Positions 277 through 26,687 of a stretch of 43,152 nucleotides of DNA are shown in pieces; position 1 is the stretch's first letter; every line of letters starts with the position of its first letter. The notes beneath the pieces were generated by a model, which was not told the DNA's origin, made no database searches, and worked only from the letters and a program-made list of their open reading frames with translations. A program made the position numbers and the translations under genes. This stretch comes from a virus (lineage: Duplodnaviria; Heunggongvirae; Uroviricota; Caudoviricetes). The stretch lies in the IMG/VR virus record IMGVR_UViG_2778261177_000005. One strand, written 5' to 3'.

Positions 277-933
277 TTATTGCAATTGCACAAGAGTCAG
301 TTCTCCCCCAAAGACAGCACCGGTATCAATATAATGCAGGTTGCCAATATCCACGCGATGGCGCAAAGGTGTATGACCAAACCAGAAATGATCAGCACCT
401 GCAATTCCCTGCCCTTTTTGGCGTTCACCTAATCGCGAGCGGCTCCACAAGACCTGATGCAAATCGACGTCCTTTTGCCATTCATAGACATCATCTGGAT
501 AATCGGCATGAGCAATAACATGTTTGCCGGTGCGACTGTGTAATTCAAGAATAAAGGGCAGATGCTGACATTTTTCCAGCGCCGTTTTCGCTTGTTTCTG
601 TTGATTATCTGCCAGCGCAATAAACCAGTCGCCGCCATTTATCAACCATAAAGACATCTGCCGGGATGCCAGCGCATCCATCGCCATCTGTTCATGATTG
701 CCTCTTACCGAACGAACCCAATGTTGTTCCAGTAACTGCAGGCAACGTAAACTTTGCGGCCCACGATCGATAACGTCTCCCACTGAGATAAGTAAATCTC
801 GCCACGGATCAAAACGACAATGCCATAATTTGCGGCGCAACTGCTCAAGACAACCGTGTATATCGCCTGAAAGCCAGATATGTCGCCATTGATGACCCGC
901 AATTCTCTGATAAACGGGCGCAGGCTGTTTCAT
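277..933 (-). CDS. pphA: serine/threonine protein phosphatase 1 (PrpA/PphA), metallophosphoesterase
   Basis: ORF 277..936 (first codon TTG, ATG at 933); GDIHG, GDVIDRG and GNHE metallophosphatase motifs visible in the translation; host gene flanking the prophage. Confidence 0.85.
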   Translation of the reverse strand: MKQPAPVYQRIAGHQWRHIWLSGDIHGCLEQLRRKLWHCRFDPWRDLLISVGDVIDRGPQSLRCLQLLEQHWVRSVRGNHEQMAMDALASRQMSLWLINGGDWFIALADNQQKQAKTALEKCQHLPFILELHSRTGKHVIAHADYPDDVYEWQKDVDLHQVLWSRSRLGERQKGQGIAGADHFWFGHTPLRHRVDIGNLHYIDTGAVFGGELTLVQLQ

Positions 934-1066
934 CAATATTTTCCTCCCGCGCTAAAGATCACATAATTTTAACAAGAATGTTAAAAAACGCTGGACTCAG
1001 ACAGTAGAGTGTGTGTTATGGTTGACTATAAAGTCAGCGAAGGGAATGCTTCTGGCTTTTAACAGA

Positions 1067-4916: not shown

Positions 4917-5269
4917 TACGCCTCCGATGTAACAGTCGTTATTCCATAGAGAGTGTCGATTTCAGCGGAAAACATGACACGTCGGGTCGTGGTATCCACC
5001 GTCGTATTGAAAGAGAGGATTGATTTAACGCCCCGCGTTTCGAGGATGCGCTTACGGATCGCCAGGTTGTAGGTTTCCGGCTTCTGCTTACCGAGTACGG
5101 ACTGGATCCACGGAGTCCCCTCGGTGGTGTCGAGAAACCATTGTCCATACCACAATTCGAATCGCGTTTTTACCGCCTGCGCCACGGCCTCCGGTGAGTT
5201 AATCAGCCAGGTGTCATCACCGCTGCCAAAGGTGTAATCGCCATCGGCGTCTTCACGTCTGTATCGCAT
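4916..5269 (-). CDS. baseplate wedge protein, gpW/gp25-like
   Basis: 117 aa; overlapping start/stop with neighbours; between the gpV-like and gpJ-like genes. Confidence 0.55.
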   Translation of the reverse strand: MRYRREDADGDYTFGSGDDTWLINSPEAVAQAVKTRFELWYGQWFLDTTEGTPWIQSVLGKQKPETYNLAIRKRILETRGVKSILSFNTTVDTTTRRVMFSAEIDTLYGITTVTSEA

Positions 5270-6021
5270 CAGTTTACTCCGTCGGTATTGCCTCCACCGC
5301 GCTGAACACCACCATGAGTGTGCGTATCATCGATTGGCTTGCCGTTAGCCTTCACGCTACCCAAAAACTCAACAGCACCAGTGATTTTTGAAGCCACACC
5401 AGAAGCAACAGACCCCACCATGCCACCCATCCAGGTTAACAGGCCATGAATGGTTACTTTCTCAGAAAAATCAGCCAGAGGGGCAACCACATCAAGACCA
5501 CCCGGAGCGACAATTTTAATTTTCCGGGTATCAGGATTAAGCTCAAAATAGGTGCTGCCGTCGTCACTACGCAACTGTGTGGCACTGGTATTAATACCGC
5601 TAATCTTCCTAGCCTGCGACTGGGGACCGACAATACAAAACGCATCCGATAAATCATGCATTCTGTCATCGACCGGCTCCTGTATCCCGCCACTCTGCCA
5701 CCAGAAATCAATACAACGATCGGCAAAAATCACCAAACATTCATCACCGGCTTTAACTGGAAACGTTAGCGTACAGCCTCCGCCACGCGGGAATACCACT
5801 GGCACATCCACCAGCAATGGGTAATTTTTGGTAATGCGGTTGCCGTCGTTATCAATTTCAACGTAACGGATAGCAGGCTGTACAACCGCCGTCACCGCAT
5901 CAGGAGCGAATGACTGAACAATGCCAGGCAAGGCGACACGGATCTGGTTCTTTGTTGTTTCCCGTTCAGATTTAAATGTTTCGGCAAGGTCACCGCTGCG
6001 GGTCTGGTCAGATACTGCCAT
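5269..6021 (-). CDS. baseplate assembly/spike protein, gpV-like
   Basis: 250 aa; RBS GGAG 9 nt upstream of the ATG at 6021; first gene after the inserted island. Confidence 0.6.
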   Translation of the reverse strand: MAVSDQTRSGDLAETFKSERETTKNQIRVALPGIVQSFAPDAVTAVVQPAIRYVEIDNDGNRITKNYPLLVDVPVVFPRGGGCTLTFPVKAGDECLVIFADRCIDFWWQSGGIQEPVDDRMHDLSDAFCIVGPQSQARKISGINTSATQLRSDDGSTYFELNPDTRKIKIVAPGGLDVVAPLADFSEKVTIHGLLTWMGGMVGSVASGVASKITGAVEFLGSVKANGKPIDDTHTHGGVQRGGGNTDGVN

Positions 6022-6038
6022 TTAGTAGGCTCCAGAAA

Positions 6039-6062
6039 GCAAAAAACCCGCCAAGTGGCGGG
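6039..6062 (-). terminator. intrinsic terminator immediately 3' of the accessory gene pair
   Basis: Minus strand reads CCCGCC-ACTT-GGCGGG followed by UUUUUU; lies between the stop of 6086..6514 and the gpV-like RBS. Confidence 0.7.
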
Positions 6063-6085
6063 TTTGAATTTTGAGAAATTTCAGC

Positions 6086-6514
6086 TTATGCAGTTAACGA
6101 GTCATCACCAATCTTCAGTAATTGATTAACGATTGCATCGACCTCTTCCGCATCCAGAATTACACTTCTCGCGGTAATCCGGTTGATTTTCCGCTCAAGC
6201 TTGTAATCAGAATTAACACGTTGGGCATGCGTCATTTTCAGTTTAACGCCGATTTTCTTTACTGCGTTAACATCAACATCGTTAAGTGCAGCTGCCTCAC
6301 CACTACAAAAGGCCGTATAGACTCGCATGTGAACTCCACCTTTTAGTTTTTCACCATCTTGTGTAGCGGTCGGTACCAGATTGTTGGTGATCCGTAAGGC
6401 GGAATGGTACATACCATAGTATGCTCGGCTAATAGCATTTCTCGTCCACATCTCACCGTTTAGAGCCAGGGAATGCTTAGCCAATTCAAGAAAACAGGTA
6501 TGCTCAACCGACAT
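6086..6514 (-). CDS. HEPN-like helical domain protein (candidate RNase toxin / abortive-infection effector)
   Basis: 142 aa; N-terminal ...EMWTRNAISRAYYGMYHSALRI and C-terminal ...HAQRVNSDYKLER resemble the two conserved helices of classical HEPN domains as I recall them; TAATG coupling to the upstream gene; AT-richer than flanking tail genes by eye. Confidence 0.45.
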   Translation of the reverse strand: MSVEHTCFLELAKHSLALNGEMWTRNAISRAYYGMYHSALRITNNLVPTATQDGEKLKGGVHMRVYTAFCSGEAAALNDVDVNAVKKIGVKLKMTHAQRVNSDYKLERKINRITARSVILDAEEVDAIVNQLLKIGDDSLTA

Positions 6515-7245
6515 TAGAGTTCCCCGGCTTCAAAGCATCCGACGCATTCTGAATCCGCAAGCCCCGCAATAATAATCTCATCAGCCAAGGCATTATTCAT
6601 CTGCGAAAGAAGCACTGGATCGTCTGTTTTGACTTCAACGAACAGCGTATCAAGTTCTGACATTACATAAAAAGCATGAGCGCCAGCAAGACGAGCGCGG
6701 TACTTTTCTGCAACGTTCATCATGAGCCGCCCAATAGTTTTTAGCTCCTGAGCATGATCTTTTTGGGTATGCAGATAATTGAGCGTGTCATACCATTTGC
6801 CCATATCTTCAGGGCGCGGTACTTCCATTGCAGTTAGCATCGGCATCACCTTTTCAAGCAAATCGATATCAACCCAGTATGCAGAAATTGTAGCAACCTC
6901 AGCCAATATCGTTGGATTAAGTGAATCAGATGCTTTCTGAATCATCACATACTGGCGAGCATGCAAACCTAAGTTACGCAGCGCAATCGTATAGTTACAA
7001 AAAGAAACTGGATCGTTAGGCGCTATTCTCAACCCCCGCTCACAGAGTGAACATCCTTCATCTATTTCACCAAGAACAAGCTTAGCTAAGCCTTCAATTG
7101 ATAGCCCCTGATAACGTTCAGGTAGTTTCTTCGCTTCACGAATGATTCGATGGATTTCAAACTCACTCAGAAGGTTTTCACCCTTAGTTAATGAAGGAGT
7201 CAGAAGATCTAACAGTTCTCCTGATTTTGGCTGCGCTAAACTCAT
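6514..7245 (-). CDS. hypothetical protein, predicted all-helical (TPR-like?), partner of the HEPN-like protein
   Basis: 243 aa; RBS AGGA about 10 nt upstream of ATG; preceded by a 149-bp gap; no motif I recognise (no nucleotidyltransferase GS...DxD motif). Confidence 0.6.
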   Translation of the reverse strand: MSLAQPKSGELLDLLTPSLTKGENLLSEFEIHRIIREAKKLPERYQGLSIEGLAKLVLGEIDEGCSLCERGLRIAPNDPVSFCNYTIALRNLGLHARQYVMIQKASDSLNPTILAEVATISAYWVDIDLLEKVMPMLTAMEVPRPEDMGKWYDTLNYLHTQKDHAQELKTIGRLMMNVAEKYRARLAGAHAFYVMSELDTLFVEVKTDDPVLLSQMNNALADEIIIAGLADSECVGCFEAGEL

Positions 7246-7394
7246 GTTTTAGTTATTCCTGGCTTTAATGAAGTAGCATATCGATGGCAATCCACCATCA
7301 AAAAGTCAGTGCAGTGTAATCGCTCGTCTCAAAAAACAACAGTTTTTAGAGCACATTTTGTTGTTTTTCAGGCGTTACGAATTTCAGGTTACCT

Positions 7395-7736
7395 TCACCC
7401 AGCCACTTTTTTACAAGGGAAAGATCCGATGATTTTCGGCGCATCCATGCTGTTCTGCAGAAGCTGGACATTCAGGAATCGCGTTTCGGTACCAGGGCGA
7501 CGAATGTATTCAAAGCCGTAGTTGTTACCGTCTTTGGCAGGCATAAGCCCCATGTCTACTTTCAAACCATTGGTACCCAGTTCGGTGATTTTTTGAGAGG
7601 TAACTCTTTCACCGTTGATAGTCGATAACTCGCCCTGGTTTGCAACCATAGTGTAGCCACCGCATTTAACCGTGAAGCCATCCGCCCACGCGCTGCACGC
7701 AGAAAAGACAGCTAACAGAAAAATAATACCCCTCAT
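7395..7736 (-). CDS. small secreted/periplasmic protein (signal peptide, 2 Cys in mature part)
   Basis: 113 aa; N-terminus MRGIIFLLAVFSACSAWA-DG is a typical Sec signal peptide with AxA site; RBS AAGGGGA; start 3 nt after the gpD-like stop. Confidence 0.6.
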   Translation of the reverse strand: MRGIIFLLAVFSACSAWADGFTVKCGGYTMVANQGELSTINGERVTSQKITELGTNGLKVDMGLMPAKDGNNYGFEYIRRPGTETRFLNVQLLQNSMDAPKIIGSFPCKKVAG

Positions 7737-7739
7737 TGC

Positions 7740-25819: not shown

Positions 25820-25849
25820 AATATAGCCCCGGATAACAGATTGAGTCAA
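25820..25849 (-). promoter_or_regulatory. PR'-like late promoter (sigma70 -35 TTGACT / 18 bp / -10 TATATT)
   Basis: Minus strand ttgactcaatctgttatccggggctatatt; the -35 overlaps the Q-like stop codon, the classic lambdoid position. Confidence 0.65.
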
Positions 25850-26400
25850 CAGACGGTTTTTAGATCCCCGGAAGAGAATGCATCACGCATCGGCAGATAG
25901 AGCATAAACTCTGCCATTTTCAACCACGCATCTATGCGATTACGGCACGTGGCGTAACACCACTCAGGGTGTGAATCATTCAGCAATTCAGCCATTTTGC
26001 GCTTAGTCATCCCCCTCCCTTCATATCGTTGCCGGAGGATACAAATCAATCCTGGGTGTTCTGCCAGCACTTCACTAATCACCCGATCAATGCATAACGC
26101 CTCTGCATCAGTACAATGTACCAGCCAGCTTTTTTGCTTGCCGTTGATCATATCCCGCAAAAAAGCCTCAAGTTCAGGTTTGTCCAGACCTGCTTTTTTC
26201 ATCCTCCGGAGCGCCTCATTAATTGCCGTTTTTGTCAGCTTTTTAGAGGTCAGCAACTGGTTAAACATATTTCCCGTCTTACCGCCGCCAATATACGACC
26301 AGCGCCCCCACATGCGCAGTTTTCCCTGAATCCAGACACTTTCCAGCGTGGTGAGACGAAGGTGTTCCCCGCTTTTGCCTGTATTTGTTGGGTAAATCAT
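25846..26400 (-). CDS. putative late antiterminator Q
   Basis: ORF 25846..26520; ATG at 26400 overlaps the upstream stop (ATGA); called from position (last nin-region gene, directly upstream of PR'/tR' and lysis genes). Confidence 0.5.
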   Translation of the reverse strand: MIYPTNTGKSGEHLRLTTLESVWIQGKLRMWGRWSYIGGGKTGNMFNQLLTSKKLTKTAINEALRRMKKAGLDKPELEAFLRDMINGKQKSWLVHCTDAEALCIDRVISEVLAEHPGLICILRQRYEGRGMTKRKMAELLNDSHPEWCYATCRNRIDAWLKMAEFMLYLPMRDAFSSGDLKTVC

Positions 26401-26687
26401 AAATAACCTTCCTTTCTCCAGATTTCTTGTGTGCGAAAAACACCTTCTGCATGCATCAGGCGTAATTCTTCTTTGGTGTAATCGCTGTTTTTTACCCGCC
26501 CGTCGATTAAATCGTGGCATGAGCTACAGGCAATCGCTGCCTGCATATCGTGTGGTTTTGTCGCTGTTCCGCACGTCCCCGCCAGCCTGTAATGCGCCAG
26601 CACAGAAGTTTCGGGATTGTGATTGCAGTAGCCAGGAATTCTGACGGTGCACATCTGCCCCCGCGCCGCTTTACGTAAATCCACCAT
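26397..26687 (-). CDS. YbcO-like (DUF1364) putative nuclease, Cys/His-rich
   Basis: 96 aa, MVDLRKAARGQMCTVRIPGYCNHNPETSVLAH...IACSSCHD; resembles DLP12 YbcO as I recall it; nin-region position. Confidence 0.55.
   Translation of the reverse strand: MVDLRKAARGQMCTVRIPGYCNHNPETSVLAHYRLAGTCGTATKPHDMQAAIACSSCHDLIDGRVKNSDYTKEELRLMHAEGVFRTQEIWRKEGYL

Follow-up and report, generated by a model that had tools for sequence, protein, structure and literature searches.

A mobile two-gene HEPN cassette at the baseplate hub-spike junction of a SEN34-like Escherichia coli prophage

What are three additional genes doing between the baseplate hub and the baseplate spike genes of an Escherichia coli prophage, and do they form a single unit? 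The question arises from the IMG/VR record IMGVR_UViG_2778261177_000005 (43,152 nucleotides, the whole of which is hereafter called the window), where an initial annotation made from the letters alone described positions 6022-7739 as an accessory island with its own terminator, holding the genes of a secreted 113-residue protein, a 243-residue protein and a 142-residue HEPN-like protein. The five minus-strand open reading frames (ORFs) concerned are indeed found where they had been placed: the hub gene (7740..8801, 353 residues) and the spike gene (5269..6021, 250 residues), which form the left and right backbone flanks, and between them the genes of the 113-residue exported protein (7395..7736), of the 243-residue partner protein (6514..7245) and of the 142-residue HEPN-fold protein (6086..6514). 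The mobile unit is smaller than the proposed island and consists only of the pair of 243- and 142-residue protein genes together with its upstream DNA and the terminator. Our preferred reading, which we hold to be on the whole probable, is that this pair is a mobile moron cassette in a hub-spike hotspot, acting as a toxin-antitoxin-like or abortive-infection ribonuclease (RNase) module.

An exchangeable cassette between hub and spike

The cassette extends over approximately 6066..7394, from the stop codon of the 113-residue protein gene to the stem of the terminator. Backbone homology with the prophage of strain 07_3722 ends at 7405 and restarts exactly at 6065. In a census of 5,426 complete E. 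coli genomes the flanking tail genes were recovered from 353, of which 32-33 contain the cassette; about 90% of prophages that are otherwise near-identical lack the pair. In other prophages the same place between hub and spike is taken by at least 10 further cargo types. They include the 113-residue protein gene accompanied by a DUF2335 gene (PEC411) or by a DUF4282 gene (TBE6), a 154-residue exported protein with a 190-residue protein and a YafO toxin (PSS-04), a 241-residue lipoprotein (85.0412), a 111-residue protein with a 170-residue protein bearing an RNNLFH motif (strain 48 and phage vB_EcoM-689R2), a 115-residue protein with a 184-residue membrane protein and a 56-residue protein (UTAK-4), and other combinations in SEN34, YP3 and Mulock. 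Divergent alleles of the partner and HEPN genes themselves are present in 07_3722 (243 and 140 residues), in APEC-O117H42 (256 and 131 residues) and in TUM17668 (257 residues and an unannotated HEPN ORF), and the occurrence of several such alleles in one slot fits diversifying selection.

Some of these cargos deserve a comment of their own. In E. coli TUM17668 (NZ_CP134353; extracted locus, approximately 2472-2870) a stretch of 440 nt that is empty in RefSeq encodes a HEPN ORF of about 130 residues ('...SRAYYSMLHE...RNEADYDL...') downstream of the 257-residue partner-like gene, and this ORF is a missed gene. The 170-residue cargo protein of strain 48 and vB_EcoM-689R2 (loci L023/L033, 1596-2108) corresponds to phrog_19013, contains the 'RNNLFH' (Rx4H) motif and is a candidate solo HEPN-type RNase. 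The 184-residue membrane protein of UTAK-4 (extracted locus L024, 1622-2176) gives a weak PADLOC match to a PycTM effector (E 2.6e-4). A lone 152-residue gene on the opposite strand is located between hub and spike in the Burkholderia phage BgManors32 (extracted locus L036, 3493-3951), and the junction therefore takes cargo well outside Enterobacterales. No description of a hub-spike hotspot in this lineage was found in the literature searched.

The genes on either side are structural. The hub protein matches the baseplate hub family phrog_196 with an E value of 1.2e-88 (the Pfam model PF22759, E217_GP41, scores 22.8 bits, below its cutoff), and the spike protein matches PF18352 with an E value of 3.7e-43 as well as the apex family PF18946. 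It could be asked whether the lineage conserves all three intervening genes as parts of the tail or of its assembly, given that they lie between structural genes and that the 113-residue protein gene is near-universal in the lineage and starts only 3 nt past the stop codon of the hub gene. However, in less closely related phages that have this tail module, such as BP63, a virulent phage of Salmonella, and Pam3, a cyanophage of characterised structure, the hub gene directly adjoins and overlaps the spike gene, and whatever lies between the two genes is therefore accessory to the tail. Moreover, unrelated genes take the place of the pair in most relatives, the copy of the pair in the Klebsiella phage Chronis resides in a non-structural region, and the signal peptide of the 113-residue protein directs it out of the cytoplasm, where virions assemble. 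A tail function for all three genes is thus very improbable, and for the 243- and 142-residue proteins it is refuted by their patchy presence in E. coli, by the Chronis context and by the BP63 and Pam3 arrangement. The accessory site that had been suspected at this junction (there designated D-V) is supported both by this adjacency and by the hypervariability among close relatives.

Homologues of the partner protein form 26 clusters and those of the HEPN protein 30, from Enterobacterales only in these searches, and among them each gene invariably has the other as its coupled neighbour; in the window the stop codon of the partner gene overlaps the start codon of the HEPN gene as TAATG. The pair was encountered in the Brunovirus slot (E. 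coli, Salmonella, Ewingella and metagenomes) and in four unrelated phage contexts, five in all: a position directly 3' of a lambda-type tape-measure gene in Lelliottia, the interval that separates the tape-measure gene from the tube/chaperone genes in a Klebsiella variicola siphovirus, an island within the tail module of an Enterobacter/Serratia myovirus, and the nin-like early region of Chronis. Identities to the window proteins, given for partner and HEPN protein respectively, are 69% and 71% in Salmonella, 40% and 58% in Lelliottia, and 26% and 46% in Chronis, so that the two proteins co-diverge, the partner faster. The slot of YP3 (extracted locus L006, 2773-3573) contains a 266-residue protein with a weak relation to the partner family (E 0.003 to the TUM17668 partner) and no HEPN gene; the protein may be an orphan partner. 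Neither att-site nor transposon-end repeats were found, for which reason transposition was discarded as the route of exchange in favour of recombination at the conserved flanks.

The 113-residue protein does not belong to the cassette, and the proposal that the three genes form one island was not upheld. Its family (phrog_3443) comprises 396 clusters from Klebsiella, E. coli, Salmonella and related genera; its gene adjoins the hub gene in most relatives, accompanies most of the alternative cargos (DUF2335, DUF4282 and others) and has a backbone-like composition (GC 48.2%, GC at third codon positions (GC3) 52.6%). The pair is of lower GC content (44.0% for the partner gene, 44.1% for the HEPN gene and 37.6% for the 149-bp gap upstream) than the hub gene (54.5%), the spike gene (50.2%) and the window as a whole (49.1%), and the GC3 of the cassette genes is 38-41% compared with 47-64% for their neighbours. 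The cassette lies within the lowest 11% of windows of the same size, which makes it distinct but not extreme. The compositional contrast first reported by hand count (about 40% versus about 55%) thus holds for the pair, at 44% versus 50-55%, but is smaller than counted and does not extend to the 113-residue protein gene. Patchy presence, lower GC content and terminator are moron features of the pair.

The 113-residue protein is an older, lineage-fixed exported accessory protein. The family alignment reveals an N-terminal Sec signal peptide of the signal peptidase I type, in agreement with its earlier description as secreted, and two invariant cysteines, C25 and C108, in the mature part. A lipoprotein was considered and rejected, since the family does not conserve Cys14 of the signal peptide and the pattern agrees with cleavage by signal peptidase I. 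That the protein is a superinfection-exclusion factor is a reasonable guess. In SEN34 (extracted locus L005, 2766-3109) the annotated SEN34_20 has 77 residues, but a signal-peptide-like sequence precedes it in the same frame, and it is therefore apparently a member of this family that was called without its N-terminus. In E. coli PSS-04 (extracted locus L004, approximately 2235-2290) what is left of the 113-residue protein gene, a piece of its 3' end ('MDAPKIIGSFPCKKVDG*'), follows the replacing 154-residue exported protein; it is the scar of an earlier cargo exchange.

The HEPN-fold protein and its TPR-like partner

The structural model of the 142-residue protein (mean predicted local distance difference test score (pLDDT) 90.7) adopts the four-helix up-down HEPN fold. 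Its best structural matches are HEPN domains, further matches being ST0689, sacsin, HepT toxins, LsoA and Csm6, and the label "HEPN-like" that it had received from its sequence is confirmed by these structural matches. The protein falls in the AF0298/UPF0332-like branch and is a putative RNase effector. Its invariant motif reads H96-x2-R99-V-x-[AS]-D103-Y104, where R99, invariant in 20 sequences, aligns with the arginine of the AF0298 segment 'LREESDY'. The canonical Rx4-6H motif is not present at this site, the window sequence being R99-V-N-S-D103-Y104 and containing no histidine. An invariant histidine, H62, is located in a GG-x-H-x-R motif in the helix 2-3 insert, between the modelled helix 21-43 and helix 61-71, and the divergent slot alleles also have one or more histidines in this insert. 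In AF0298-like HEPN-T proteins the motif histidine is replaced, often by Asp, and a histidine of the helix 2-3 insert has been proposed to complete the RNase site (PMC3710099). Judged from these residues, catalysis by the 142-residue protein is plausible.

The 243-residue protein (mean pLDDT 90.5) is modelled as a tetratricopeptide repeat (TPR)-like helical solenoid, covering approximately residues 7-181, followed by a small C-terminal beta-beta-alpha-beta domain (residues 186-240), and its structural matches are TPR proteins only. It shows no sign of a nucleotidyltransferase, DNA-binding or enzymatic domain and has no GSx10DxD motif. The N-terminal 60 residues are the most conserved and residues 136-195 the most variable. 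A profile search over 1.84 billion representatives returned about 50 full-length relatives of 240-270 residues, otherwise generic TPR proteins, and no fusions that would reveal the function of the partner. The PHROG families concerned (22649, 37103 and 17809 for the partner, with 5176) are all annotated as "unknown function", and the literature searched, including RefSeq accessions, TPR-HEPN terms and the DefensePredictor supplements, yielded no description of the pair.

Transcription signals and phage background

Only two sizeable gaps occur downstream of the tape-measure gene, 149 bp before the partner gene and 64 bp before the spike gene; at all other junctions in this part of the operon the genes overlap or leave 2-3 nt between them, in line with the translational coupling noted initially. 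The gap before the spike gene contains an intrinsic terminator on the minus strand, AAACCCGCC-ACUU-GGCGGGUUUUUU (6041..6065), whose stem (6044..6065) is followed by a U-tract and which forms the right boundary of the cassette. The stem consists of 9 bp, 6 of them G-C, closed by a tetraloop, and 8 nt separate the end of the terminator from the ribosome-binding site of the spike gene (GGAG, 6030..6033). With a folding energy of -15.7 kcal/mol (z = -4.1, none of 200 shuffled sequences folding as well) and the U-tract, it is the strong intrinsic terminator that had been announced 3' of the HEPN gene and before the spike gene. Rfam searches of 5900..7900 gave only sub-threshold matches, caused by this hairpin.

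In all slot variants examined, whatever the cargo, this hairpin stands before the spike gene, and in the Klebsiella phage Mulock its stem displays compensatory changes. Wherever the context was examined, the HEPN gene is likewise followed by an intrinsic terminator, the hairpins in Lelliottia, Chronis and Enterobacter being near-identical. In Ewingella (extracted locus L015, 8161-8232) a tandem of two terminator-like hairpins separates the HEPN gene from the spike gene, the first directly after the HEPN stop codon and the second being the conserved pre-spike hairpin, which is consistent with one having come from the cassette and the other from the slot. We infer that the terminator also serves as the shared right-hand recombination junction.

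On the other side of the pair, about 150 bp of upstream non-coding DNA move with the cassette, with blocks common to the E. coli, Salmonella and Lelliottia copies. This DNA includes an A/U-rich weak hairpin on the minus strand at 7331..7371 (-10.1 kcal/mol, z = -2.0), where the block TGTTGT(C)GTTTTT is shared with the Salmonella and Lelliottia copies. A candidate sigma-70 promoter on the minus strand (7275..7301) combines a -35 element TTGATG (7301..7296), a 15-nt spacer and a -10 element TATGCT (7280..7275), matches the consensus at 8 of 12 positions and is weak; its spacer holds the inverted repeat GATGG-N7-CCATC. The Ewingella, K. variicola, Serratia and Chronis copies possess a clearer conserved TTGAAG-N17-TAnnCT with a spacer palindrome TTACC-N5-GGTAA, which in Serratia is found as the compensating variant TTGCC-N5-GGCAA. 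This spacer palindrome may be an operator.

Such an operator would speak for a pure addiction module, that is, a toxin-antitoxin pair which stabilises the prophage or the cassette and confers no anti-phage benefit. The palindrome in several copies, with its compensating change in Serratia, suggests autoregulation, toxin-antitoxin pairs typically show this gene order and TAATG coupling, and a YafO toxin pair is found in the same slot of other prophages. On the other hand, the partner lacks a DNA-binding fold, and several divergent alleles in one hotspot, with a partner that evolves faster than the HEPN protein, are more like an arms race. Addiction as the sole function is therefore unlikely in our view, although toxin-antitoxin and abortive-infection roles are not mutually exclusive.

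The terminator raises the question of how the baseplate genes beyond it are transcribed. A Q-like late antiterminator gene (25846..26520, minus strand) was identified by its match to PF06576 (DUF1133, E 1.2e-107) and to PF06530 (Phage_antitermQ, 26.6 bits for a cutoff of 26); it sits upstream of the lysis and late genes, a holin gene follows it, and the Q-mediated read-through to the baseplate genes that had been postulated is thus plausible. The same late operon offers a further explanation of the pair, which would serve the phage in lytic growth, as a late counter-defence or host-takeover function expressed via the Q-dependent operon and not in the lysogen. The pair lies inside the late operon and in the same direction, it has no strong promoter of its own, tail modules account for four of its five contexts, and the lone partner-like gene of YP3 could be an anti-toxin or anti-defence factor. 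We nevertheless consider a lytic role unlikely, since the Chronis copy is located in the early nin-like region, the pair keeps its own upstream non-coding DNA and terminator across contexts, about 90% of otherwise near-identical prophages do without it, and known prophage-encoded HEPN proteins are defences. In the classical moron model the cassette would have a weak, possibly autoregulated promoter of its own, a terminator that insulates the baseplate genes in the lysogen and antiterminated read-through in lytic growth; the upstream DNA and the Q-like gene fit this model without being proof of it.

The window represents a whole E. coli prophage, that of a temperate myovirus, with integrase, excisionase, RecE/RecT and cI-like repressor genes. 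Its early region is lambdoid and its tail is of the SEN34/Brunovirus type, the nearest phages being Salmonella phage SEN34 (Brunovirus), Yersinia phage YP3 and the E. coli vB_EcoM-xxxR phages and prophages. The Pfam and PHROG signatures of the contractile-tail module (Dit-like protein, Pam3_gp18 plug, hub, spike with apex motif and Baseplate_J) are those of the E217/Pam3/SEN34 type. The operon is therefore not "P2-type", as it had been called, and the P2 label is a functional analogy only (gpD corresponding to the hub, gpV to the spike); the slot is not flanked by the P2 backbone genes by which P2-like hotspots are recognised (Rousset et al. 2022). At the end of the prophage, beyond the tail-fibre assembly gene, the stretch 277-1350 is of very low GC content (33% at approximately 900-1350) and adjoins a calcineurin-like phosphoesterase ORF (277..936, minus strand); it is probably another moron.

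A possible RNase module among known prophage systems

If the pair acts as we propose, the HEPN protein would be a latent RNase effector with a non-canonical site formed by R99 and the alternative histidine H62 and would be toxic, and the TPR-like partner would bind it and restrain or regulate it, as an antitoxin, as a sensor or as both. Its expression in the lysogen would serve to keep competing phages out or to maintain the prophage. Transcription of the cassette would stop there at the terminator and not extend into the baseplate genes beyond, and Q-modified RNA polymerase would pass the terminator (6041..6065) during lytic growth.

Several observations weigh against this interpretation. Without Rx4-6H at the expected site, the 142-residue protein could be a non-catalytic binding domain. 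Neither Pfam nor NCBIfam gives a family match for it (nor for the 113- and 243-residue proteins): the Pfam HEPN model PF05168 has no hit in the window protein at E <= 0.01, and the APEC-O117H42 allele reaches 18.5 bits for a cutoff of 22. In PADLOC-DB v2 only HEPN_IX (E 0.009) and PDC-M71B (E 0.037) are matched, and no known system includes the pair; the divergent alleles match HEPN_IX with E values of 1.6e-4 to 3e-3. Classical antitoxins and the minimal nucleotidyltransferase (MNT) differ from the partner, in which no DNA-binding or enzymatic domain could be recognised, and the partner-like gene of YP3 stands without a HEPN gene, an arrangement not predicted by strict toxin-antitoxin logic. 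No minus-strand promoter site reached the threshold of 9/12 in a consensus scan, and with a weak candidate promoter and an orientation co-directional with the late operon the pair could simply be late-expressed. Finally, the terminator accompanies every other slot cargo and cannot be assigned uniquely to this cassette.

Comparison with characterised systems places the HEPN protein closest to the AF0298-like HEPN-T proteins (UPF0332/classical HEPN, PDB 2hsb; Anantharaman et al. 2013, PMC3710099), with which it shares the 'SRAYYxMYH' helix, the 'R-x3-D-Y' motif and H62 in the helix 2-3 insert. Their identity is only 19%, however, and the window protein remains below the Pfam HEPN model; its partner is TPR-like and not an MNT, and its family is phage-borne and restricted to Enterobacterales in these searches. 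The HepT/MntA type VII toxin-antitoxin systems (PDB 5yep, 7ae2) resemble the pair in being two-gene operons with a small HEPN gene downstream of a regulator and in having a conserved tyrosine by the motif (Y104 here), whereas the window pair has no MNT (neither GSx10DxD nor a nucleotidyltransferase fold) and no Rx4H histidine, so that neutralisation by AMPylation cannot be assumed.

Small HEPN proteins as prophage accessory genes have precedents in HepS of Gifsy-1 (PMC13043305) and Tha of S. aureus (PMC11087260), latent RNases which are triggered by tail proteins of incoming phages. These act solo, with a canonical Rx4-6H and no obligatory partner, whereas the motif in the window is non-canonical, the TPR-like partner is always present and the RNase activity is putative. 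The setting can likewise be compared with late-operon morons and hotspots such as HK97 gp15, JBD26 Tab and the Z/fun and old/tin loci of P2 (PMC10884400; PMC9122126; bioRxiv 10.1101/2024.10.15.618418), where a variable cassette of differing composition, with a terminator and cargo of the toxin-antitoxin or defence type, is also located between structural genes. Here the lineage is SEN34/Brunovirus-like, the junction is that of hub and spike, and the defence role of the slot cargos is putative. The arrangement is thus of a known kind and differs in lineage, in junction, in an obligatory TPR-like partner instead of an MNT and in a non-canonical HEPN motif.

A bolder proposal, which we advance tentatively and with rather less than even confidence, is that the TPR-like partner and the AF0298-like HEPN protein constitute an undescribed family of phage-borne anti-phage systems, in which a repeat-protein sensor controls an RNase with an alternative His/Arg site, and that the hub-spike junction of SEN34-like prophages is an unmined defence hotspot whose cargo is exchanged by recombination between the 3' end of the 113-residue protein gene and the shared terminator hairpin. 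The alternative His/Arg site was predicted in 2013 (PMC3710099), and the literature searched contains no experimental demonstration of it.

Should the pair be inactive, or an addiction module only, it would be an ordinary moron. If it is active, it would add a compact and easily cloned two-gene unit of about 1.3 kb to the known prophage defences, and it would provide an experimental handle on the non-canonical site of the AF0298-like HEPN proteins, a very large and mostly uncharacterised branch that is usually paired with an MNT. The slot itself, with at least 10 cargo types and four divergent alleles of the same architecture, is a natural library for the discovery of superinfection-exclusion and defence genes in the prophages of E. 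coli, Salmonella and Klebsiella.

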